54,539 nt of DNA from a virus (IMGVR_UViG_3300032214_000203:1-54539), one strand, 5' to 3'; shown: positions 3,405 through 54,461, numbered from the stretch's first letter. Notes: generated by a model not told the origin, from the sequence alone. Translations and numbers: made by a program.

Positions 3405-3614
3405 ATGTCCACAGAAGATTCTGTTAACAAGCGCCTTGACCTGATTGAGCCACGAGTTGGACAATTGGAGCGCGATGTGTCGTCCATAAAAACTGAGGTT
3501 CGCATCCAGTTCAAAGAATTGTTCAATAGAACAAAACGGCTGGAAGGCATTCTGGTTGGCACTGCTGGGACAATCATCATCATGCTCATGGGAATACTTT
3601 TTAAAATGGGGTGA
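3405..3614 (+). CDS. Small coiled-coil protein with C-terminal TM helix (XhlA/holin-like)
   Basis: GGAG RBS; heptad region followed by hydrophobic ILVGTAGTIIIMLMGILF; first gene of the lysis cassette. Confidence 0.55.
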   Translation: MSTEDSVNKRLDLIEPRVGQLERDVSSIKTEVRIQFKELFNRTKRLEGILVGTAGTIIIMLMGILFKMG

Positions 3615-3623
3615 GGTGGTAGG

Positions 3624-3809
3624 ATGTTTGAGAAGATTGTCTGGTCAGCAGTCGCGGCCTTTGTTGTGGCGATCATCTATTTTTCTGGTGACGGGTTCTA
3701 TCGTTACCCGTGCCAAGACCCGGTCAACTGGGCTGCGCTTGAATGCACACCACCGATTTGCCTTCGCACTGGCATGTGCGCCACTGACCTGACGGGAGAC
3801 TCGCAATGA
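3624..3809 (+). CDS. Small membrane-anchored Cys-rich protein
   Basis: N-terminal TM, then YRYPCQDP..W...C.PP.C...G.C; GAGGT RBS. Confidence 0.6.
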   Translation: MFEKIVWSAVAAFVVAIIYFSGDGFYRYPCQDPVNWAALECTPPICLRTGMCATDLTGDSQ

Positions 3810-10763: not shown

Positions 10764-13700
10764 GTGGGTATTATCAGCGTACAAAGCCCAACGACAGGCG
10801 GAAGCTACTCTGTAAGAATTGCAGGTGATGTTCCTACCGCAGAAGAACAGCAGCGCATTGACGCATATCTCGCGCAGCAAGACGCCACGTTTGCAAGAAC
10901 TGCTAGTCAATTGTTTCCTAGTGTCGCTCCGGCAGAAGCGCCAGAAGCCCCTGTTGAGGAAGATGACGGCACGGCTATTGGCCGTGGCTTTCAGCGTGGC
11001 CTCCAAGGCATCCGATCCCTCACTGGCACCACAATCGAAGAGGCTGGGCGCGCTCTTGGTTTGGAGGGTGTGCAGGAATTTGGCCGCGGCATGGAGACCG
11101 CTGCCGAAGAGGAGTTCCGCAAACTCCAAGAAGTCAGGGCGCGAACTGGGCTGTATGATGTAGAGGATTTAAGTAGCGCCCTCACCTACGGCGGTGAGAC
11201 ATTCGGCGAACAGGCTCCGATACTTGCACAGACACTGGCTGGCACTGCCGCTGGTGCTGCCATTGGTTCTGCCGTTCCAATCGTTGGCACGGGGATTGGT
11301 GCTGTTGTCGGTGGTGCAATAGCATCTCTGCCCCTTTTGTTTGGCGGGAACGTCCAGCGGCAAGAGGAGCAGGTAGCGGCTGGCGAATTGGATGAGGTCA
11401 GCGTCCAACGTGCACTTGCGACAGCCATTCCTCAAGCTGCACTCGAAGGTATCGCTGGTAGAATCCTTGCGTTTACACCGCTGCGTCCCGGCGTAGGCAA
11501 CGTTTGGGCAAGGGCTGGCAAGGGTGGCGCGGCTGGTGTCGTGGCTGAAGTCCCAACCGAAATTACACAGCAGTTGCTGGAGCGTGCGCAAGCTGGCCTG
11601 CCCATCGACAGCGATGATGCTATCAAAGAATACGTCGAAGCTGGCGTGGCCGCTGGTATTCTTGGTGGCCCGATTGGTGCCGCTGGTGGTGTGGTGCAGC
11701 GTGATGTTGCGCCCAAGGAACTCGATGATGACTACAAAGAGTTAGCCCTTGAGGGTGATCGCAGGATTAAGTTTGCCGAGGAAACGGAGCGGCAGATTGC
11801 AGAAGATCGTGCGAAGGCTCTTGCCTCCGCTGGCATTGACCCTGATGCACCGCTTGGCATTGAGGGGCCGCAGCAACGCCTTGCGCTTCCTGCGCCTGAG
11901 ACTGTTGATATTGCGCCCGAGACCGCAATCGCTGACGAAGAGTTCGCTAACCTGAGCTTTAACAAGGCTCAGTATGAGCGTGTGCTGCAGCAGGTAAAGG
12001 CCGACATTACCAGCGGGAAGAAGATCAACATCCCTGCAATCCAACAGCGCGTAAAGGCTGACATGCCTGATGTTACCGTACCCAAGGTGCGTGACATCAT
12101 GAAGGAGCTTCAGGCTCGCGACTTTGTCGTGGAAAACCCGGTAGCAAAAAAGAACAAGTACGTCGCCAAGAACGCTCTGGCACCGGAAGTAAACACGCCT
12201 GACGTTTCTTACCGCCGACAGATTGATACTGCCGCAGACTTCATCAAAGCGGATCAGTCAAAGCTGGAGCGCCTGCGCTATGACCTGCAGGCGGCAGAAG
12301 CATATGGTCGCGATCTAAATGGCAACAAGGTTACGCCGGATCAGGTGAACGCAGAGATCGCCCGCACAGAGCAGGGCATTGCGAAGAGCCAGCAAAGCAT
12401 TGAGCTTGCAAACCAGCGCCTCAAGACACTGGGCCGCGACACGCACGTCCCCCGCATTGAGAAGGTAGGCCTGCCGCCCAGCATGAAGGCTGTGCCTGTC
12501 GCTGAAGCCACACCGGATGCCCTTCGACCGCGCTTTGAGGCACAGCAGAGCGCCATTCGCGGTATGAAGGAGCAGATCACTTCCGTTAACAAACAGGTTA
12601 GCAAGCTCAACGAAAACGCCAAGAAGCGCACTTTAAGTTCTATTGAACTTGATCGCATGCAGAAGCTGCAACAGCAGCAAGCTGAGTTGTCTACGCGCCT
12701 TGGAGAGGCACAGGCAAACCTGAAAACACCTGAGAAGATTTTTCAGGAAGCAAAGGGTGAGCAATTCCGTGAGCAAGAACGGCAGCGTGAGATTGAGCGT
12801 AAGCTTATTGCAGCCCGCGCTCGTGCGGCAGCGGATCAGGTTAAAGCGCAGGAAGATCAGGGTGTGTCTCCGATCTCTTCAGCGTTCAATGCGAAGCAAG
12901 CGAATGTTCTCAAATCTCTCCAAACTCGACTGAACAATCTCGGCCTCAAAGATGTAAAGCTTGAGGGCGCACAAAGGATTGAGGGTGCTGAGGGCATGTT
13001 TGATCCAGTTACCAAGGTGCTTAGCCTTGGTATGGGCCTGTATGATCCGAAGATGACGGATCAACAGTTGTTCGATGCCACCTCTGAGGTGATGAACCAT
13101 GAGGTGGTTCATGCGCTGCGGGCTATGGGTTTGTTCAAGCCCAATGAGATGAAGACTCTCGAGCGTTTTGCAGAGAAGACCAAGTACGTCAAACGTACAA
13201 AAGACGGTACGCAAAAGCGGAACTACACATACCTTGACCGTGCAAATAAACTGTATCCAGACCTCACTCCGACACAGCAGAAAGAAGAAGCCTTTGCGGA
13301 AATGTTTCGCGACTACACGGCTGGCCGTCTGAAGCTTGGTGGTGGGCCGCGTGCTTTCTTCGAGAAGATCAAGAAGTTCTTCAAGGCTCTAATCGGTGCG
13401 AACGTTGATCAGGGCTTCACCCGTGTGGAGGATATCTTCCAAGGCATCCGCCGTGGTGAGATTGGTGCCCGTGATCGTGTGGCACCTGCCGCACCCGCTG
13501 CGCAACCTGCCGCCGCTGCGCCGATGCAGTCACGCATCCCTGCTACGGAAGAAGACATTCGCCCGCAGCAAGACATCCGCATGCCAATCAATCCAAACCT
13601 GCCGAACGATCAAGTGCGGGCACAAATTCAAAGGCTCACAGACCAGAACCGCCCCCTCGTTAAGCGGCTGATCAAGCGCATCGACGAGCGGTTCGGCACC

Positions 13701-16700
13701 AAGTCTGGCGACAATGTTAAAGACCTGTCCAAGGTCACGCAGAAGGCGCGTCGTCCCTCTATCTTGGCAGCTAAGCCATGGCATGATGTGTCGCACATCC
13801 GCGACAGCTACCGCTTCAAGACAGTGGTCGATGACTTCCGTAATGTGCCCGCCATCTTTGACGAGCTTTTGGCTGATGGCGTTGGCCTCGTGAAGATCGA
13901 TACCAACAAGCTATTCGCGCCGAAGGAGTGGGGCTGGCGCATCATTGCGTTCGATCTGCGCATGCCGAACGGCCAGCTTGTTGAGTGGTATTTGCCGCTC
14001 AAAGAACTTGAAGCAGAGAAGAAAGCCAAAGGCCACCTCATCTTTGAGGAGTGGCGGAACAAGACGCAGGAAGAGCTTTCCGCCCAGCGCGATGAATACT
14101 TCGCGTCAATCCGGCGCAGCTATGAGGGCTACGATCAAGCCTTCCAAGCAGCACTGGATCGCATGGGCGTCAGCCGTCAGGAAGCGGAAGCCTCTTGGAG
14201 AAGCGCAGAGAGTTCGTTGCTCGACGCTGCACGGAACGCCCGGAGATCGTCCGGCGTGGGGATTTCTTCCGCAGCAAGCGCAGAGACTGGCTTGACGGCA
14301 CCATCCATGGTGCGCACTGCAGTGGAGCCGTCCGCTCCGTATATGATGGCACGCCCAGTGCCGTCCTCGACCAGTGCAAAAGCTTCTGCCATTGTATCTA
14401 CCTCCGATGATTACATGCCGGACGCACCTGCAGAGGAGCGCCCCTTGTTCTCTAGGTTGCCTCGCTCCTCGATGGTAGCGGGCCTGCGGGACTTTATCAA
14501 AAATAATCCCGATGGTTTCACCATTGACTCTACCACATTCGACCCTGCCGCTGGCGGGTTTGTTGTGGCACCCCTAAAGGAAGCCGAAATAATTGTCGGA
14601 GAGTCCTTGCCAGAAGAGGTTCTACTAGGTTATATAGAGGATAACAAGGATATTGCAAGGGCAATCAATCGTCCCGTCTACTTGGGGGGATGGTTCGACA
14701 GCCAGAGCCAGCAGTACTTCTTGGACAACACACTGATTGTTCCCACTGCGGAAGAGGCGTTGTACATCGCCGAAGCTGCAGACCAGTTGGCAATCTTTGA
14801 CCTGAATAACTTTGAGGAGATCAGGACAAATGCAGGAATCGAACGACTCAAACAAAGTGGAACTTATCGGGGTGACGCCGCAGTCGGATACCAAAGAAAC
14901 CTTGCGGAGGTTGGTCGCCGCTTTGCGCAAGCAAGGGATCAACGTCGTGCCCGCATCCAAGAACAGCTTGTTGGAGGACTAGAGCGTCCGCGCCAGTCGC
15001 GCCTCGTTGTGCCGCTGACGCCCGAGCAGCGGTCGGCAAGCATCATCGACTACCTCAATCCGAACACTGGCAAGCCGCTCTTCAAGAAGAAGCCCGGAAG
15101 TGAAACGCTGGTAAGCTTTGCGAATAAGTTGCTGGAGCTTCGTGGCACCCGCACATACGACATCGTTAACTCTGAAGCGGATCGTCGTGAGATTGCGCAG
15201 ATCATGGCTGCAGAGGCAGAGGCTGCGCTTCTGTCGAGCCGCGATGCGCTGGGCTGGTATGACAGCACACTGAAGTTGGCGAAGCAAATCCTGTACCCTG
15301 TGTACCCAGAGATTTCGCCCACTCGTCCCGACGGCACCCCCAACCGGATGCACGATCCTGCAGCGGAGCATGCCTTCGACTACGCTACGGCAGTCACATC
15401 CAACGGCATGGCTGTCGTGGACAACTACCAGTTTGCGTCAGAGCAGTACGATGCGTGGAAGGCGAGCCCCGATGGCAAGTTCCCTGTCGTTGGCAAGGGT
15501 GATCAGGGCGGCTCAATGCTGTCTGCGTTTGAGTTCTGGAATGCGCTTGTCGATGTAGGGTACGACTCAAATCAAATCTCTCAGCTACTCACAACGCAGT
15601 TGCCACGCTCAGAGGTTAACAACATTCTGAAGGAAGTCTTTGGTGTTCGTCGTCTGGCAGACCTGCCAGTTCAAGCTGACACCAAGGAAGAGGCTGACAC
15701 CGTTGTGTCGGTGGCATACGTCATTGGCCCGAAGATTGGCAACGGCTTCTACCAAAACCTGCGTGGGAACTTCAACCCTCTGACAATGGATCGCTGGTGG
15801 ATGCGCTTTGTAAATCGCATCACCGGGAACCCGCTTGTGATCCACACCGAGGAGAGCCTTGGCAATACGTTCAACAAGCTGTGGAACTACGTCAGCAATC
15901 CTGATGGCCTGACAAATATGGAGCGCGACATTCTTCGTCGTGCCCAAGAAAACCTGAACATGACCAAGCTGGAAAGAAGTGACATTGCACTTTTGTCTAG
16001 CGAGATGGACAAGGTTTGGAACAAGGAGTTCTTCAACAAGGCCTACAACGACAAGCTCCGCGACCTTCAGAACGAAGGCATGGACTTTGAGATTGTGAAA
16101 GGTTCTGTGCGCGGCCCGGATGCCGAGCGCGTCAAGCGCCTTGCTCGTGAGGCTCGCCCCGAAAAGCCAGCCATGTCCAAGGCGGCGACCACCCTTGTGA
16201 AGAAACTGAAGCCGTCTCTTGAGGAGGCACCTCGCAACGCACCTGATCGCACCGCTATGCGTGATGCAGCAAATCGTGCCCGCGAAATCCTAAGACGTGA
16301 CCTTGGCGTCGAGCTTACCAATGCCGACTTCCAAGCCCTCATGTGGTACGCAGAGAAGCGCATCTTTGATGCTGGCGGCGTGAAGCGTGGGCGCGGTGAG
16401 GACAATGACTATGCGGATGGTGCGATTGCCATCGCCAAAGCGAAGGGAATATCCGATGCAAAAATTGAAGCCGCACTCCCCGAGGCAGAACGAGGCCGAG
16501 TCCGTGGTGTCGAATCTCAACTCGCAGGAGATCAAGATGCTGGCGGCAGGGTTGGCGAACTGGTTCGAGAACCAGAAGCGGGAGACTTCTTCGCCCCAAG
16601 AAGACTGACGCTCGTCCCTGAGGATGACACTATCGAAGCGAACATGACGCCCAGAGAACGGGCTGAGGTTCGTCAGGCACTGCAGGGCGCAGAGATCGAT

Positions 16701-19700
16701 CAGGAGATGCCGAGGCAGATGTACTCGCGCATGCCCGTGGCTGAGGCATACATGCCCACTCGTGCGCCTGTAGACAACAAGGCTGGCCCGACACCGATCT
16801 ACGGTTCCATCATGGAGCGTGGCCGCTTGTTGCCCGTTGTTCTGCCGAAGGGTTCGCACCGCGTCTATGAGAGCGGTATCGAGGTTGGCAATGGACTGTT
16901 CCATATCCAACAGCGTCAGCACGACAGGGAGCTTGTCGAGAACTCCAAGTACAAGCGCGTAGAGAATGCCATCTATGACCTGATGCGCCGTTGGCAGAAT
17001 CAAGGCTATGAAGATGGCGAGTCTGTCGTCGGCTACAACAGCCGCGACGGTATTGTGCTTGAATGGCGGAACAACCTTGCCTTCAGTTCTCCTCCCCTCC
17101 TTCTCGTTCTTGAGCGTGGCAGTGAGGTGCAAGGCGCTCCACTGCGTGATGCCTACTACGTCAAGACATTCTTCCCCGTCCTGAAGAAGAAGGATCGCGC
17201 AGCACCAGAGCGCAAGGCACAACAGCAGCGTCTCTATAGCCGCCTGTATTCCACCACTGCGACACTGGCACCACAGGTCAAAGCCAAGACCCTGAAGCTG
17301 GACTATGCGCGTGCGGCAGACTTCCTTGCAAAGGGTCTGCGCGTTGTGGTCACGCCCGACAAAGCGCAAGCCGCAGCCGACACGATCCTTCGCAAGTTCC
17401 AAGACAACATGCTGCCCGTTGGCCGCATGATCCAAGAGCTACAGGCCAAAGGCCTGACGATTACCGACGCCATGGATACCTATCTGAAGGAAGAGTTGTA
17501 TCACGGCGTTGTTGGCAACGAACTGAACCGTCGTGAAGAAGGCATCTACAAGGACGCTCTCAATGCAGTGAAGGCACTGAATGTGAATGCTGGCATGCTC
17601 GATGGGCTGCAGCGTGCATCTGATGCTGCGTCTGGCACTGGGGATGGCTTTGTGAAACAGGCGCGCCAGTCGGCTGGCAGCGACAAGCTGGCCTTGGCTG
17701 AAGCGTACCTCTACGCCAAGCATGCGAAGGAGCGGAATGCCTACATCCGTACCATCGATCCTAAAAACGACAGTGGCTCAGGCATGCAAGACGCAGAGGC
17801 TGACGCTATCCTGCGTTGGTTCTCTAGCTTGGATGCTTCCAATGCTGCGGCAATAGCCAACCTCAACACTGCAGCCCGTGGCATTGTGGCTGACACCAAC
17901 CGGGTTCGCGTTGACAGCGGGCTGATCCCTGATCAATTCGACCAGATTGTGGATGAGGACGGTCAGGTGATTAACCGCCCAGAGTACGACTTCTTCGTGC
18001 CTCTGCGTGGTATCTACGACCCTGAGGCTGCGGAGTCTGACGGCACCACTAGCGCCGCTGGCGGTCAGCTTTTTGGCGGAAGGGGTCGCCCCGATCCTCG
18101 TGCCCTTGGCCGCTACAAGTATGCCACTGACGTACTGGCAAACCTGATTAATCAGAACCAACAATCTGTATCTCGTGGCGAGCGCAACAAGGTCGGCCAA
18201 TCGTTCTTGGAGTTGCTTCGTGCAAACCCATCAATGACAAAGGCATACGCAGAAATTCTGACGAAGACGCCCAAGCGCCGCGCACTGAGGAGCGGGCGTG
18301 TGCGTGAGATCACTAACTTCGCTGCGGCACAAGACCCGAACATCTTTGTCGTGAAGGAAGACGGCAAGGATGTGTACGTCGAGCTGTTCAACCCGAACCT
18401 TGGCGCTGCGCTCAAGGGTGACAACGGCGTTGGCGCTGGCGCTCTAGGCTACATCGTGCGGTCTATGGGCATGGTGAACCGCTACCTGTCCAACATCAAC
18501 ACGTCCTATAACCCCGAGTTCTTCATCACCAACTTCCTTCGCGACTTGCAAGCTGCAGGCGTAAACATCCAACAGTTCGACGAGCAGGGTCTGACAACTC
18601 AGATCGTCAAGGATGTGCGCAAGGCTCTCGCTGGGATCAAGCGTTCCATCCGCAACAAGGACGACTCGTCCGAGTGGTCTCAGATTTACAGAGACTTTGT
18701 GAATGCTGGCGGTCAGAACGTCACGAACCAGATGTCTACCGTCGCAGATCAGATGGATAACATCCGCAGTCTGGTCGGGGATATCTCCGACAAGGGTGCC
18801 CGTGGCAGGTGGAACCAAGTTAAAAACAGCTTCGTCGGTAAAGGCGCTGGCTCTCTTCTGAGCTTTATCGAAGACTACAACACGGTGGTCGAAAACGGCA
18901 TCCGCGTTGCGACGTACAAGACGCTGCTCGACCGTGGGTTCACGCGCGAGAGGGCGGCACAGGCGGCTCGCAACGTGACTGTGAACTTCGCCAAGGGTGG
19001 CGAGTACAAGTCATTCCTGAATGCGTTCTACCTGTTCTACAACGCGTCTCTGCAGGGTTCGTTTGCCCTTCTGAATGCGGCACTGCGTTCGCGTAAGGTG
19101 CAGGGTATCTGGGCTGGCGTGATTGCTGCGGGCTTCCTGCAGGATCAACTGAATGCCTTGCTGTCCGATGAGGACGAAGACGAAGACAAGCAGTATGACA
19201 AAATTCCAGACTACATTCTGGAACACAACTTCATCCTGCCCGATCCGTTCGGCTTTACAGATCGCTCTTACATCGCCATCCCCATGCCGTATGGCCTGAA
19301 CATGGCGCACAACATTGGTCGCGCAACAAGCCGTGCATTGCGCGGTGAGTACGATGCAGGCGAGGCGACGGGCAGCATCGTTGGGAATATCGTTGACACC
19401 ATCAACCCGCTTGGTGGGTCTGAAAGCTTTGCAAACTTTGTTGCGCCAACCGTGGTCGATCCGTTCATTGACATCATCGAGAACGAAGACTTCGCGGACA
19501 AGCCGATCTTCAAGGAAGCATTCCCCGGAGATCGCGGGCCCGACAGTCAAAGGTACTGGGCAACGACAAACCCATCTGCAATCTGGGTGGCGCAGAACAT
19601 CAACTCTCTCACTGGTGGCACCTCTGCTATCCCCGGCTTCATCGATGCATCTCCAGATGTCCTGAACTTCTGGTTGGAGTTTGCGACAGGTGGTGTCGGT

Positions 19701-20126
19701 CGCTTCGTGCAGCGCACGGCAGAACTTCCTGTCCGCGTTTACGAAGAGGGTCTGAATGACGAACTCTACCGAGAGGTGCCGTTCGTTCGTAAGATCATTG
19801 GCAGCGTATCGACTCGCGAAGACTACGGTCGCTACATCGAAAAGCGCAATGCGATCTTGCTGGCAGGGGATGAAATCAAAGAGGCCATCGACAATCAGGA
19901 TCGTGAGCGCGCGCTTGCTGCTCGTGAAGAGTTTGCCGAAGAGCTTCGCTATCTTCCCCGCGTTCGTGCAATCGACAACGCGATCCGTCAGGTGAACCAG
20001 CAAATGAACAAGCTGCGCGACAACCGCAACATGCCCGATGAGCAAAAGCAGGCTATCATGGATCGTCTCGATGAGCGCAAGCAGGCGCTGATCTTGCGTG
20101 GCAATCAAATCCTGATGGACTACTGA
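10764..20126 (+). CDS. Giant polyvalent internal virion protein (metallopeptidase, RelA/SpoT-like, SAM-lyase-like, HhH-like, PBECR-like, LPD38-like domains)
   Basis: 3120-aa ORF. HEVVH..EEAFAE; VK...K..K..D..R..GW..VE..GH; GGW.D..YFLD..Q.AIFDL; GPK.....NL.G....TMD.W..QA..W; G.GLFHI...H; C-terminal EN..R......NF...G....N.FYLFYNA..QG..IPMPYG. Confidence 0.85.
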   Translation: MGIISVQSPTTGGSYSVRIAGDVPTAEEQQRIDAYLAQQDATFARTASQLFPSVAPAEAPEAPVEEDDGTAIGRGFQRGLQGIRSLTGTTIEEAGRALGLEGVQEFGRGMETAAEEEFRKLQEVRARTGLYDVEDLSSALTYGGETFGEQAPILAQTLAGTAAGAAIGSAVPIVGTGIGAVVGGAIASLPLLFGGNVQRQEEQVAAGELDEVSVQRALATAIPQAALEGIAGRILAFTPLRPGVGNVWARAGKGGAAGVVAEVPTEITQQLLERAQAGLPIDSDDAIKEYVEAGVAAGILGGPIGAAGGVVQRDVAPKELDDDYKELALEGDRRIKFAEETERQIAEDRAKALASAGIDPDAPLGIEGPQQRLALPAPETVDIAPETAIADEEFANLSFNKAQYERVLQQVKADITSGKKINIPAIQQRVKADMPDVTVPKVRDIMKELQARDFVVENPVAKKNKYVAKNALAPEVNTPDVSYRRQIDTAADFIKADQSKLERLRYDLQAAEAYGRDLNGNKVTPDQVNAEIARTEQGIAKSQQSIELANQRLKTLGRDTHVPRIEKVGLPPSMKAVPVAEATPDALRPRFEAQQSAIRGMKEQITSVNKQVSKLNENAKKRTLSSIELDRMQKLQQQQAELSTRLGEAQANLKTPEKIFQEAKGEQFREQERQREIERKLIAARARAAADQVKAQEDQGVSPISSAFNAKQANVLKSLQTRLNNLGLKDVKLEGAQRIEGAEGMFDPVTKVLSLGMGLYDPKMTDQQLFDATSEVMNHEVVHALRAMGLFKPNEMKTLERFAEKTKYVKRTKDGTQKRNYTYLDRANKLYPDLTPTQQKEEAFAEMFRDYTAGRLKLGGGPRAFFEKIKKFFKALIGANVDQGFTRVEDIFQGIRRGEIGARDRVAPAAPAAQPAAAAPMQSRIPATEEDIRPQQDIRMPINPNLPNDQVRAQIQRLTDQNRPLVKRLIKRIDERFGTKSGDNVKDLSKVTQKARRPSILAAKPWHDVSHIRDSYRFKTVVDDFRNVPAIFDELLADGVGLVKIDTNKLFAPKEWGWRIIAFDLRMPNGQLVEWYLPLKELEAEKKAKGHLIFEEWRNKTQEELSAQRDEYFASIRRSYEGYDQAFQAALDRMGVSRQEAEASWRSAESSLLDAARNARRSSGVGISSAASAETGLTAPSMVRTAVEPSAPYMMARPVPSSTSAKASAIVSTSDDYMPDAPAEERPLFSRLPRSSMVAGLRDFIKNNPDGFTIDSTTFDPAAGGFVVAPLKEAEIIVGESLPEEVLLGYIEDNKDIARAINRPVYLGGWFDSQSQQYFLDNTLIVPTAEEALYIAEAADQLAIFDLNNFEEIRTNAGIERLKQSGTYRGDAAVGYQRNLAEVGRRFAQARDQRRARIQEQLVGGLERPRQSRLVVPLTPEQRSASIIDYLNPNTGKPLFKKKPGSETLVSFANKLLELRGTRTYDIVNSEADRREIAQIMAAEAEAALLSSRDALGWYDSTLKLAKQILYPVYPEISPTRPDGTPNRMHDPAAEHAFDYATAVTSNGMAVVDNYQFASEQYDAWKASPDGKFPVVGKGDQGGSMLSAFEFWNALVDVGYDSNQISQLLTTQLPRSEVNNILKEVFGVRRLADLPVQADTKEEADTVVSVAYVIGPKIGNGFYQNLRGNFNPLTMDRWWMRFVNRITGNPLVIHTEESLGNTFNKLWNYVSNPDGLTNMERDILRRAQENLNMTKLERSDIALLSSEMDKVWNKEFFNKAYNDKLRDLQNEGMDFEIVKGSVRGPDAERVKRLAREARPEKPAMSKAATTLVKKLKPSLEEAPRNAPDRTAMRDAANRAREILRRDLGVELTNADFQALMWYAEKRIFDAGGVKRGRGEDNDYADGAIAIAKAKGISDAKIEAALPEAERGRVRGVESQLAGDQDAGGRVGELVREPEAGDFFAPRRLTLVPEDDTIEANMTPRERAEVRQALQGAEIDQEMPRQMYSRMPVAEAYMPTRAPVDNKAGPTPIYGSIMERGRLLPVVLPKGSHRVYESGIEVGNGLFHIQQRQHDRELVENSKYKRVENAIYDLMRRWQNQGYEDGESVVGYNSRDGIVLEWRNNLAFSSPPLLLVLERGSEVQGAPLRDAYYVKTFFPVLKKKDRAAPERKAQQQRLYSRLYSTTATLAPQVKAKTLKLDYARAADFLAKGLRVVVTPDKAQAAADTILRKFQDNMLPVGRMIQELQAKGLTITDAMDTYLKEELYHGVVGNELNRREEGIYKDALNAVKALNVNAGMLDGLQRASDAASGTGDGFVKQARQSAGSDKLALAEAYLYAKHAKERNAYIRTIDPKNDSGSGMQDAEADAILRWFSSLDASNAAAIANLNTAARGIVADTNRVRVDSGLIPDQFDQIVDEDGQVINRPEYDFFVPLRGIYDPEAAESDGTTSAAGGQLFGGRGRPDPRALGRYKYATDVLANLINQNQQSVSRGERNKVGQSFLELLRANPSMTKAYAEILTKTPKRRALRSGRVREITNFAAAQDPNIFVVKEDGKDVYVELFNPNLGAALKGDNGVGAGALGYIVRSMGMVNRYLSNINTSYNPEFFITNFLRDLQAAGVNIQQFDEQGLTTQIVKDVRKALAGIKRSIRNKDDSSEWSQIYRDFVNAGGQNVTNQMSTVADQMDNIRSLVGDISDKGARGRWNQVKNSFVGKGAGSLLSFIEDYNTVVENGIRVATYKTLLDRGFTRERAAQAARNVTVNFAKGGEYKSFLNAFYLFYNASLQGSFALLNAALRSRKVQGIWAGVIAAGFLQDQLNALLSDEDEDEDKQYDKIPDYILEHNFILPDPFGFTDRSYIAIPMPYGLNMAHNIGRATSRALRGEYDAGEATGSIVGNIVDTINPLGGSESFANFVAPTVVDPFIDIIENEDFADKPIFKEAFPGDRGPDSQRYWATTNPSAIWVAQNINSLTGGTSAIPGFIDASPDVLNFWLEFATGGVGRFVQRTAELPVRVYEEGLNDELYREVPFVRKIIGSVSTREDYGRYIEKRNAILLAGDEIKEAIDNQDRERALAAREEFAEELRYLPRVRAIDNAIRQVNQQMNKLRDNRNMPDEQKQAIMDRLDERKQALILRGNQILMDY
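14177..14392 (-). CDS. Nested antisense small protein, candidate antitoxin of the RelA/SpoT-like module
   Basis: 71 aa; GGAGGT 7 nt before ATG; not in codon register with the host gene; the host frame is Ser/Ala-rich linker here. Confidence 0.6.
   Translation of the reverse strand: MAEAFALVEDGTGRAIIYGADGSTAVRTMDGAVKPVSALAAEEIPTPDDLRAFRAASSNELSALLQEASAS
14830..14982 (+). CDS. Nested +1-frame small protein following the SAM-lyase-like module
   Basis: MQESNDSNKVELIGVTPQSDTKETLRRLVAALRKQGINVVPASKNSLLED*, 50 aa; GAGGAG at 14814-14819. Confidence 0.5.
   Translation: MQESNDSNKVELIGVTPQSDTKETLRRLVAALRKQGINVVPASKNSLLED
16456..16608 (+). CDS. Nested +1-frame small protein following the HhH-like module
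   Basis: MQKLKPHSPRQNEAESVVSNLNSQEIKMLAAGLANWFENQKRETSSPQED*, 50 aa; AAGGGA 7 nt before ATG. Confidence 0.45.
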   Translation: MQKLKPHSPRQNEAESVVSNLNSQEIKMLAAGLANWFENQKRETSSPQED

Positions 20127-53084: not shown

Positions 53085-54461
53085 ATGACTACGTCCCAAG
53101 GCGGCTACGTCGACGGCGGCTTTGACCTTCTGAAAGCCCCCGACGCCCCGACCATCACGTCTGTCACGAACGGCATCGGAACCATGTCCGTGGCATTCAC
53201 TGCGCCCGCCAACCCCGGCGGAAGCGCGGTCACGGGCTATACGGTCACGGCGATCAACGAAAGCACCGGGGCATCCGTCGGCGCGACTGGGTCGGCGTCT
53301 CCGATTACTGTAGCCACGGGCGCAGGCACCTTTAGGGTTCGATCTGCCGCAACCAACATCTATGGGCCGGGTCGGGTGTCTGCGTTCAATACTGGGAACG
53401 TGGTGTTTTCTGGGGCGAGCTTGTGGAGCTGGGGCGAGAACAGCGTCGGCGCAGTTGGCGATGGAACTGTCATCAACCGCTCAAGCCCCGTTCAAATTGG
53501 TGCTTTAACTACTTGGGGCTTTGTTTCTAGTAGTCGCGCTACAAAAACCGCTCTAAGAGCCGATGGAACCCTATGGGCTTGGGGGCAAAATGCTTTCGGC
53601 GCCTTGGGCCAAAACAATACTATCAATAGATCAAGTCCCGTTCAGATCGGTGCTTTGACAAACTGGTCGAAGTCGTCGGCCTCTGTGAACCATGTCGTGG
53701 CGACTAAGTCTGATGGTACGTTATGGTCTTGGGGAAATAACAGCTCCGGAGAACTTGGAGACGGCACAACTGTCAACAAATCTAGTCCCGTTCAAGTCGG
53801 CGCACTCACCAATTGGGCTCAGGTTTCCGCTGTTTCCGGTGTTACAGCCGCTATCACAACTACTTCACAGTTGTGGACATGGGGTTCTGGAAGTTATGGT
53901 CGCCTCGGGCAAAACAGCACCGTTAGCCGATCCAGCCCCGTTCAAATCGGCGCACTCACCAATTGGGCTCAGGTTTCTGTGGGCGAATCAACGGGTGCGC
54001 AGCATGCAGTAAAAACAGATGGTACACTTTGGGGGTGGGGAAGATATATTGGCGATGGAACTGCGACATTTCGTTCCAGCCCTGTTCAGATCGGCACCCT
54101 TGCAGACTGGGCTCAGGTCTCTTGCGGTGCAAGCGGAGAACATACGTCGGCCATCAAAACGGATGGGACTCTTTGGTCTTGGGGTATAAACACTTTTGGA
54201 CAACTTGGAGACGGCACCACAAGCAATCGACTGAGCCCCGTGCAAATCGGCATTCTGACAAATTGGTCTCAGATTTCAACCTCTGGGCTCGCCGATGTGT
54301 TTGCGGTAAAAACGGACGGCACTCTTTGGGCATGGGGACGAGGAACTGATGGTGACCTTGGTGACAACACAAATGCCAACAAGAGCAGTCCCGTTCAGGT
54401 CGGTGCCCTTACATCATGGTACTTGGTGAGCAACACCCTCGCCCTCTACGGAGTAACCTAA
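53085..54461 (+). CDS. FN3 + RCC1/BLIP-II beta-propeller repeat protein
   Basis: AP.APTI..V..F.AP..GGS.VTGY FN3; seven repeats of DGTLW.WG.N..G.LG....SSPVQ.G.LT.W. Confidence 0.88.
   Translation: MTTSQGGYVDGGFDLLKAPDAPTITSVTNGIGTMSVAFTAPANPGGSAVTGYTVTAINESTGASVGATGSASPITVATGAGTFRVRSAATNIYGPGRVSAFNTGNVVFSGASLWSWGENSVGAVGDGTVINRSSPVQIGALTTWGFVSSSRATKTALRADGTLWAWGQNAFGALGQNNTINRSSPVQIGALTNWSKSSASVNHVVATKSDGTLWSWGNNSSGELGDGTTVNKSSPVQVGALTNWAQVSAVSGVTAAITTTSQLWTWGSGSYGRLGQNSTVSRSSPVQIGALTNWAQVSVGESTGAQHAVKTDGTLWGWGRYIGDGTATFRSSPVQIGTLADWAQVSCGASGEHTSAIKTDGTLWSWGINTFGQLGDGTTSNRLSPVQIGILTNWSQISTSGLADVFAVKTDGTLWAWGRGTDGDLGDNTNANKSSPVQVGALTSWYLVSNTLALYGVT

Follow-up and report, generated by a model that had tools for sequence, protein, structure and literature searches.

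Do the modules of a giant phage virion protein carry small genes of their own, written in a second reading frame inside the sequence that encodes each module, and if they do, what might the products be for? The question is raised by IMGVR_UViG_3300032214_000203:1-54539, a virus record of 54,539 bases (referred to throughout as the window; estimated completeness 92%), and by one giant open reading frame (ORF) that lies within it. A preliminary description of this DNA saw four cassettes in the giant ORF, bounded by a repeated Ser-Arg motif, with a small ORF and its Shine-Dalgarno (SD) site nested wholly inside each of three of them, and proposed that these nested ORFs are antidote genes for the domains that surround them. 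The cassettes and the three nested ORFs, here called N1, N2 and N3 after the cassettes that hold them, are all to be read in the sequence (Table 1). Conservation and synonymous constraint uphold N2 and N3 as genes, while N1, whose frame is forced open and whose synonymous ratio is 1.0, does not stand.

ORFs of this size are in themselves nothing beyond chance, since 35 ORFs of at least 40 amino acids (AA) are found in the 3.7-kb cassette stretch and the minus strand of the giant gene holds ORFs of 365 and 381 AA. A scan of viral contigs for relatives yielded 36 loci with 51-76% identity across the cassette region, and clustering at 97% nucleotide identity reduced these to 22 representatives with guanine-plus-cytosine (GC) contents of 40-57%. 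Over the whole 3120-codon gene, the longest +1 stop-free runs common to all 22 representatives are those at N2 (43 codons) and N3 (31 codons); the next longest reaches 19. Of the 15 representatives scored for N2, 13 combine ATG, open frame and terminal stop; for N3 the figure is 16 of 21, with L035 among the 21 although it could not be aligned. The exceptions include L026 and L027, with insertions or a later stop and ORFs of 96, 50 and 60 AA, L032, which has a 50-AA ORF, and L034, which has a GTG start. When each homologue's protein was held fixed and its synonymous codons were redrawn from its own usage, the probability per lineage of obtaining an open frame together with ATG and stop ranged from 0.001 to 0.065 for N2 and from 0.006 to 0.19 for N3.

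The pattern of substitution points the same way. In a Synplot-like count over 19 of the 22 representatives (L032, L034 and L035 were dropped), the ratio of observed to expected synonymous differences is 0.21 in N2, 0.40 in N3 and 1.0 in N1, and the three lowest 25-codon windows of the gene, at 14910-14984 (0.05), 16455-16529 (0.24) and 14829-14903 (0.27), all fall inside N2 or N3. The variability of the third main-frame codon position is 0.16 in N2 and 0.29 in N3, against 0.48-0.64 in the flanks, and the most variable main-frame position inside both is the first, which is the wobble position of the nested frame. Among nine deep lineages, identity in the +1 frame (0.71 for N2, 0.52 for N3) exceeds that of the main-frame protein over the same bases (0.68 and 0.48); elsewhere in the gene, +1 identity is approximately 0.58 times main-frame identity less 0.02, a relationship from which N2 and N3 depart with robust z values of 13.6 and 10.6. 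The start signals are also kept. Of 68 non-redundant N3 copies, 64 begin with ATG, 3 with GTG and 1 with TTG, and 67 have an SD-like site, against a control value of 0.18. For N2, 39 distinct sequences were obtained, 4 of which were missed by the anchor pattern; among the 35 scored, 32 start with ATG and 32 have an SD-like site (control 0.17). No conserved RNA structure was found in the N2 and N3 regions with RNAalifold, whose consensus folds amount to 7 pairs at -1.64 kcal/mol and 3 pairs at -0.05 kcal/mol, respectively, and are negligible, and the search for internal promoters gave no signal (2 sigma-70-like sites against 1.4 expected). Judged by sequence conservation, there is thus little doubt that N2 and N3 are conserved protein-coding overlapping genes.

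Searches of Pfam and PHROG placed N2 and N3 in no known family, hhalign finds the two unrelated to each other (probability 0.7%), and protein database searches brought up no distant free-standing family for either. The expectation that standard annotation would miss such genes is mostly borne out; 11 small proteins related to N2 and 5 related to N3, all of them close relatives and unnamed, are nevertheless present in the protein databases, so the genes are occasionally called. Nine public runs, all in the form of contigs, bear on the window; four of them were compared with it and say nothing of transcript ends, strand or translation, and the contigs from two RNA libraries (X5 and X6) cover parts of the window, which does not show transcription. 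The preliminary description placed each nested ORF in a linker behind a catalytic-looking domain. That suits N3, which overlaps cassette-3 residues 487-538, comprising the end of a small helical subdomain and a disordered linker, but not N2, which overlaps the well-conserved C-terminal portion of cassette 2.

N2 is inherited with cassette 2 and N3 with cassette 3, whatever the order of the cassettes. This emerges from further scans that widened the sampling to 206 loci, in which all 130 cassette-2 domains carry a +1-frame N2-type ORF and 182 of 199 cassette-3 loci carry an N3-type ORF, in every case shifted by +1 from the cassette-3 frame of that locus; the misses consist of 3 loci cut by contig ends and 14 that belong to a distant clade. 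At the two loci where cassette 2 follows cassette 3 instead of preceding it (L032 and L077), N2 stays with the former and N3 with the latter. Examined in homologous cassettes for conserved ORFs and ribosome-binding sites and for selection, as the preliminary description suggested, N2 and N3 are kept across dozens of diverged relatives and N1 is not. As a separate observation, the cassette-3 frame itself is split by a frameshift shortly before N3 in L114 (near 4142) and L176 (near 4325), reflecting either assembly error or a real break.

For N1, the probability that the frame is open given the main-frame protein is 1.00 in 9 of the 13 cassette-1 representatives and 0.48-0.66 in the other 4; the frame stays open because the main-frame amino-acid sequence imposes it. 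The ATG is gone in 2 of the 13 (L025 and L026). With openness forced, a synonymous ratio of 1.0 and loss of the ATG, N1 was ruled out as a gene and is, on this evidence, a by-product of the main frame. The comparison of cassette 1 to a toxSAS enzyme provided with a nested antidote is not supported either: the cassette has no real nested gene, it gave no RelA/SpoT match against Pfam even at E values up to 10, and it has no PDB profile match. What is left is a weak lead to a possible RelA/SpoT-like domain, from an Atlas cluster (score 0.92) in which 17% of the members carry RelA_SpoT. Two longer antisense ORFs within the giant gene, of 381 AA (16290-17435, minus strand) and 365 AA (19011-20108, minus strand), show no synonymous constraint and, like N1, are apparently by-products of codon composition. 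The fourth-lowest synonymous window of the gene, at 12660-12734, has a ratio of 0.43, to which few sequences contribute (expected count 87); none of the alternative frames is conspicuously conserved in it.

Table 1. Positions of the giant gene, its cassettes and the nested reading frames in the window (counted from its first base; AA, amino acids)
Feature	Position	Strand	Description
Putative giant polyvalent virion (ejection-type) protein gene	10764-20126	+	ORF, 3120 AA; part of a structural module of the phage
HExxH (zincin-type) motif	13098-13112	+	AA 779-783
Cassette 1	13530-14450	+	307 AA; swapped or missing in some relatives
N1	14177-14392	-	71 AA; ATG, GGAGG upstream; inside cassette 1
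Cassette 2	14451-14996	+	182 AA; domain without recognised fold; from alignment of relatives
Shine-Dalgarno site of N2, GAGGAG	14814-14819	+	Retained also in relatives whose third-position GC is near 30%
N2	14830-14982	+ (+1 frame)	Very probable overlapping gene, 50 AA, within cassette 2
Cassette 3	14997-16724	+	576 AA; predicted HhH-GPD-glycosylase-like helical domain, small helix-turn-helix-like subdomain and disordered linker
Cassette-3 face modelled against N3	15510-15740	+	Residues 172-248; includes the hairpin and neighbours of Lys246
Cassette-3 helix-hairpin-helix	15711-15761	+	Residues 239-255; helices 239-243 and 247-255 around a Gly-rich hairpin (model)
Shine-Dalgarno-like site of N3, AAGGGA	16443-16448	+	Read in the sequence
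N3	16456-16608	+ (+1 frame)	Very probable overlapping gene, 50 AA, within cassette 3
Cassette 4	16725-17237	+	171 AA; no nested gene detected
LPD38 domain	19185-19736	+	AA 2808-2990; sole Pfam match in the giant protein

How a gene might come to lie inside another can be approached through a more distant set of 80 cassette-3 loci: 59 have the domain inside the protein, 19 have it at the C-terminus, and in 2 it is truncated. Small ORFs in these loci were located by rules of position. Of the 78 untruncated loci, 72 have an ATG-initiated ORF of 35-150 AA that begins near the end of the cassette-3 domain, outside the main frame. Nested or free-standing, such a small gene at the 3' end is a nearly universal companion of cassette 3. 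Grouping of the small proteins by BLAST single linkage (E below 1e-4) gave two main groups. The first, to which the classic N3 type belongs, has 31 members, every one of them nested in the +1 frame. The second has 20, of which 11 follow a terminal cassette 3 with an overlap of 4-149 nucleotides and 9 are fully nested in giant ORFs, and 17 BLAST links connect its free-standing and nested arrangements, the best at 2.6e-9. Because this second family occurs in both arrangements, its conservation is not a side effect of the main frame, and the pattern supports a module of two genes across which the frame of a polyprotein can run on. The idea that toxin-immunity pairs were captured into the giant ORF has partial support in cassette 3, in the free-standing and nested loci of the second group. 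It fails for N2: the minimal one-cassette architecture (L288, 1611-2486) is a 291-AA protein in which cassette 2 directly follows an N-terminus that is Gly-rich and hydrophobic, as in the giant protein, and there the N2-type ORF is still almost wholly nested (hidden Markov model (HMM) E 5.8e-10), so that N2 is not a captured downstream gene.

A separate 85-AA ORF after the end of the cassette-3 protein of L084, bearing a His-Ser-Pro-x-Gln motif, was considered as a free-standing N3 and rejected; the similarity is not significant (3.3 bits, hhalign probability 3.6%), and a scan for its relatives returned only itself. A cultured phage also carries the arrangement. Limnohabitans phage DC33 (L289, PQ492659.1) has the cassette-3 domain in a giant ORF annotated as hypothetical, and an unannotated +1 ORF at the end of that domain (3564-3791) resembles +1 ORFs in L275, L283 and L247 (E 1.7e-11 to 1.5e-8). 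The taxonomy given in the DC33 record is Inoviridae, which is ill-suited to a 39-kb phage with a giant gene.

Cassette 3 is the module for which a structure could be proposed. Its model (mean predicted local distance difference test (pLDDT) 80.7, predicted template-modelling score 0.72) was compared by VIA-align with all PDB representatives, and enzymes of the HhH-GPD class occupy 20 of the 21 top rows, with Z from 9.2 to 5.8, root-mean-square deviations (rmsd) of 4.0-5.3 and 168-232 residues aligned; the best row is 3n0u (Z 9.2, rmsd 4.1, 192 residues), and the remaining one of the 21 is a phage base-modifying transferase. The HhH-GPD matches include 8-oxoguanine glycosylases, endonuclease III, MutY, AlkA, MagIII, ROS1 and queuine salvage enzymes. 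Two residues are invariant in 29 sequences, Lys246 in the hairpin (15732) and Asp265 (15789), 19 residues apart, a spacing like that of the catalytic Lys and Asp of endonuclease III, to which they may correspond. HhH-GPD glycosylases have, behind the helix-hairpin-helix, a loop rich in Gly and Pro and a catalytic Asp, to which bifunctional members add a Lys. Residues 463-518, the subdomain whose end N3 overlaps, resemble small helix-turn-helix domains (VIA-align Z about 5). Foldseek against BFVD retrieved only pieces of other polyvalent proteins, and the cassette-3 family is very large, with 2404 clusters (50% identity) that match at E 0.001 or below. The two-lobed helical fold of HhH-GPD DNA glycosylases, or one like it, is likely for cassette 3, and from this model we infer that it may have glycosylase activity.

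Cognate binding, which the preliminary description had proposed to examine by modelling, finds support for N3. The complex of cassette 3 with N3 was modelled with a score of 0.73 (runs at 0.71, 0.73 and 0.77), against 0.01 for the best of 3 controls (0.00-0.01); 58 of 80 solved complexes and 2 of 110 mismatched pairs come up to the mark used for this score, a calibration that is approximate only here, because the complex was modelled from own alignments. In the models the pLDDT of the partner is at least 64 and the agreement of contacts among runs at least 62%, and residues 13-40 of N3 touch cassette-3 residues 172-248. These models support the view that N3 binds its own cassette-3 domain.

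The gene in which all this takes place lies in a genome that also encodes a large terminase, a portal, a primase/helicase, an endolysin-like protein and virion proteins. The LPD38 match of the giant protein scores 129.7 bits against a cut-off of 27, and PHROG assigns its N-terminus to a virion structural family and its C-terminus to families of giant proteins. What had been called a peptidase region has the conserved HExxH motif as its sole basis; the motif is kept in all 18 representatives that hold this part of the protein (of 22 in all), while the Pfam search of the giant protein found no peptidase match. With its very large size, an LPD-type domain, terminase, portal and virion genes as neighbours and the exchange of cassettes among relatives, the ORF matches what Iyer et al. 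(2017; PMC5512222) describe as phage-type polyvalent proteins, giant multidomain proteins delivered with the DNA and proposed to be cut into units by a zincin-type peptidase, among whose domains LPD38 and RelA/SpoT are listed. It shares with these proteins the giant multidomain build and LPD38 and perhaps, to go by its HExxH motif, the zincin-type peptidase, and differs from them as described in having nested putative partner genes (the word "overlapping" is absent from that paper) and in that cassettes 2, 3 and 4 match no Pfam family. An LPD38 protein, gp47 of phi24B, has been reported in virions from proteomics (bioRxiv 10.64898/2026.04.10.717836). At the end of the record, a 458-AA protein (53085-54461) matches PHROG families named "regulator of chromosome condensation" (RCC1-like repeats).

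The cassettes themselves are delimited by five copies of a junction motif, [Q/F/Y]-Ser-Arg-[I/L/M] (x-Ser-Arg-hydrophobic), at AA 923, 1230, 1412, 1988 and 2159. In protein alignments of the giant ORFs, cassettes are kept, lost or replaced independently of one another, the Ser-Arg motif is retained at their joints, and additional cassettes are inserted directly before it. A contig from public run X1 has 967 other letters in place of 13534-14394, almost exactly at the Ser-Arg joints, so cassette 1 has been swapped in a close relative. Pfam and PHROG searches of cassettes 1-4 gave no match, nor did sequence and profile searches of the cassettes against PDB; for cassette 2 the Atlas search gave no usable match either, and its structure model was set aside (pLDDT 40.8). 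In several loci the main frame has a conserved Gly-Pro-Asp-x-Asn-Leu motif that starts another cassette, and there an Arg/Lys-rich tail recurs in the nested frame where N2 or N3 lacks its usual stop (L026, 7307-7594; L069, 4142-4414; L035 and L036); the tail is probably a by-product of that motif.

A mechanism that would join these elements can be sketched. The product of the giant gene would be packaged in the virion as a protein made of exchangeable cassettes, which its own HExxH peptidase would probably cut apart at the Ser-Arg junctions. Ribosomes would start anew at the internal SD and ATG sites, in the +1 frame of the same late mRNA, to make N2 and N3, and each small protein would be the dedicated partner of the domain whose coding sequence holds its gene, N2 and cassette 2 by extension from N3. 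Seated on the helix-hairpin-helix, N3 would most likely keep the glycosylase-like domain off the DNA in the cell that is producing progeny, and unfolding of the polyprotein at ejection would strip N3 away and so free the enzyme in the next host. This proposal as a whole (a virion protein of exchangeable cassettes, with internally initiated partners N2 and N3, of which N3 is an antidote-like inhibitor) is put forward tentatively, its chances falling somewhat short of even. A broader version, in which the cassettes are self-contained effector-plus-antidote modules, is doubtful: here the cassette-3 superfamily would be a virion-delivered DNA glycosylase, silenced in the producing cell by a nested or free-standing partner that is stripped at ejection, and overprinting would be what allows a toxin-immunity pair to sit in the middle of a polyprotein.

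Several results weigh against this account. As to descent, the homology between the second group of small proteins and N3 is weak (hhalign probability 25%, E 7.7e-4), and an iterated N3 HMM profile recruited 20 of the 59 internal distant loci and none of the 19 terminal ones. As to the fold, Foldseek of cassette 3 against PDB gave no match at E 0.001 or better, and the Z values are moderate for a helical protein, such as can arise by chance, for which reason the HhH-GPD-like fold is held to be likely and not proven. As to the interface, conservation on cassette 3 is 0.703 against 0.676 in the rest of the domain, a value equalled or exceeded by 35% of shifted patterns, and the most conserved motif of N3, the N-terminal His-Ser-Pro-x-Gln, lies outside the confident contacts. 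The median isoelectric points of N2 and N3 are 7.1 and 6.6, and neither is an acidic DNA mimic. Finally, neither stop-free runs nor synonymous constraint revealed nested genes in cassettes 1 and 4, so that an antidote is no general requirement of the modules. With N2 and N3 not acidic mimics and cassettes 1 and 4 having no partner, the antidote role is a best guess and not a result.

That N2 and N3 are cognate partners which help their domains instead of restraining them, as chaperones for folding, packaging or ejection or as packaged small subunits, is unlikely, though it draws on the same evidence of linkage and binding as does the proposal of an inhibitor. Both proteins are hydrophilic, helix-containing and 50 AA long, as might be expected of such helpers, and the lack of a partner in cassettes 1 and 4 would suit the need of a particular fold better than it suits toxicity. 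The position of N3 in the model is what speaks for inhibition: it covers the helix-hairpin-helix beside the invariant Lys. In HhH-GPD enzymes the helix-hairpin-helix is the DNA-binding element, and N3 bound there should therefore block DNA.

Slightly less probable again is that N2 and N3 are overlapping genes whose products act elsewhere, in host defence or regulation, and whose location is a matter of saving space by overprinting. Overprinted genes of unrelated function are common in small viruses (review PMC8227390), N2 nested in the 291-AA protein looks like plain overprinting, and the N-terminal motif of N3 has no part in the modelled interface. Against it stand the strict co-inheritance that is seen across deep divergence and in both gene arrangements, and a modelled complex of cassette 3 and N3 that passes where its controls score 0.00-0.01; and no copy of N2 or N3 away from its cassette was met with in the examined loci, which were themselves selected by cassette.

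Frameshifting is frequent in phage structural genes (review PMC5009743), and the nested frames do end in conserved stops, as they would if programmed shifts into the +1 frame produced truncated polyproteins with alternative C-terminal tails and no separate proteins at all. Judged by start signals, upstream stops and gene arrangement, this is most improbable. ATG is the start codon in 64 of the 68 N3 and 32 of the 35 N2 copies, and an SD-like site lies 5-17 nucleotides before it; related small proteins exist as separate genes; and in 54 of 68 N3 and 31 of 35 N2 copies a +1 stop stands no more than 8 codons before the start, so that there is hardly any space for a site of shifting. The start signals and the nearby stops point to initiation instead. 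There is next to no chance that the regions have no extra coding function and owe their features to RNA structure, to recombination joints between cassettes or to accident, for although N2 and N3 do lie near cassette ends, where recombination takes place, the consensus RNA folds are negligible, variability is highest at the wobble position of the nested frame, conservation is greater in the +1 protein than in the main-frame one, and start, SD site and stop are kept across the full range of GC content.

The proposal that N2 and N3 are dedicated partners of their cassettes can be set beside several known arrangements. Among the lysis proteins of phage lambda, Rz and Rz1 are encoded by a small gene wholly inside a larger one, in the +1 frame and with its own start, and their products bind each other. 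N2 and N3 are likewise small genes wholly nested in a larger phage gene, in the +1 frame and with their own starts; unlike Rz/Rz1, which serves lysis with one pair per genome, they belong to a modular virion polyprotein that holds two unrelated nested genes, each tied to one exchangeable domain, and neither has an evident signal peptide or lipobox. In the polymorphic toxins of contact-dependent inhibition (CDI), Rhs and type VI secretion (T6SS) systems, effector modules are exchangeable, the toxin is the last domain, and the immunity gene is a separate one downstream. Cassettes 2 and 3 resemble these in being exchangeable modules, putative effectors, with a small protein encoded at the 3' end, and a terminal cassette 3 followed by its downstream gene has just that layout; they differ in that translation of the main ORF continues, in its own frame, across the gene of the putative partner. 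The closest analogue in layout is lambda Rz/Rz1, and the closest in logic is an effector-immunity cassette.

Ugi and p56 are phage inhibitors of the host uracil-DNA glycosylase, small and acidic DNA mimics that sit on its DNA-binding face. N3 is predicted to be, like them, a small phage protein on the DNA-binding face of a DNA glycosylase-like domain; unlike them it is near neutral, and what it is predicted to bind is an HhH-GPD-like domain of the phage itself, which has a different fold from the host enzyme that Ugi and p56 inhibit. With overprinted genes of the phiX174 type (review PMC8227390) the locus shares dual coding and the suppression of synonymous change in the older frame, whereas here the phage is tailed, with 54 kb and no obvious shortage of space, and the overlap goes with a protein module and with a contact predicted between that module and the nested product. 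In a literature search that did not reach most subscription journals, no published account turned up of genes nested within those for polyvalent or ejection proteins.

Overlapping genes are thought to be rare in tailed phages and hard to prove there, and N2 and N3 are statistically clear across dozens of diverged lineages. Polyvalent proteins have been known only from domain analysis; at this locus a nested gene is tied to each of two exchangeable domains, and for one of them, N3, there is a concrete and testable model of binding. The locus also yields a large family of glycosylase-like domains together with a candidate family of natural inhibitors. If the partners do inhibit, they would explain how injected enzymes that damage DNA can be synthesised beside the phage's own replicating DNA, and the effector-immunity logic of bacterial toxins would be extended to the virion proteins of phages.

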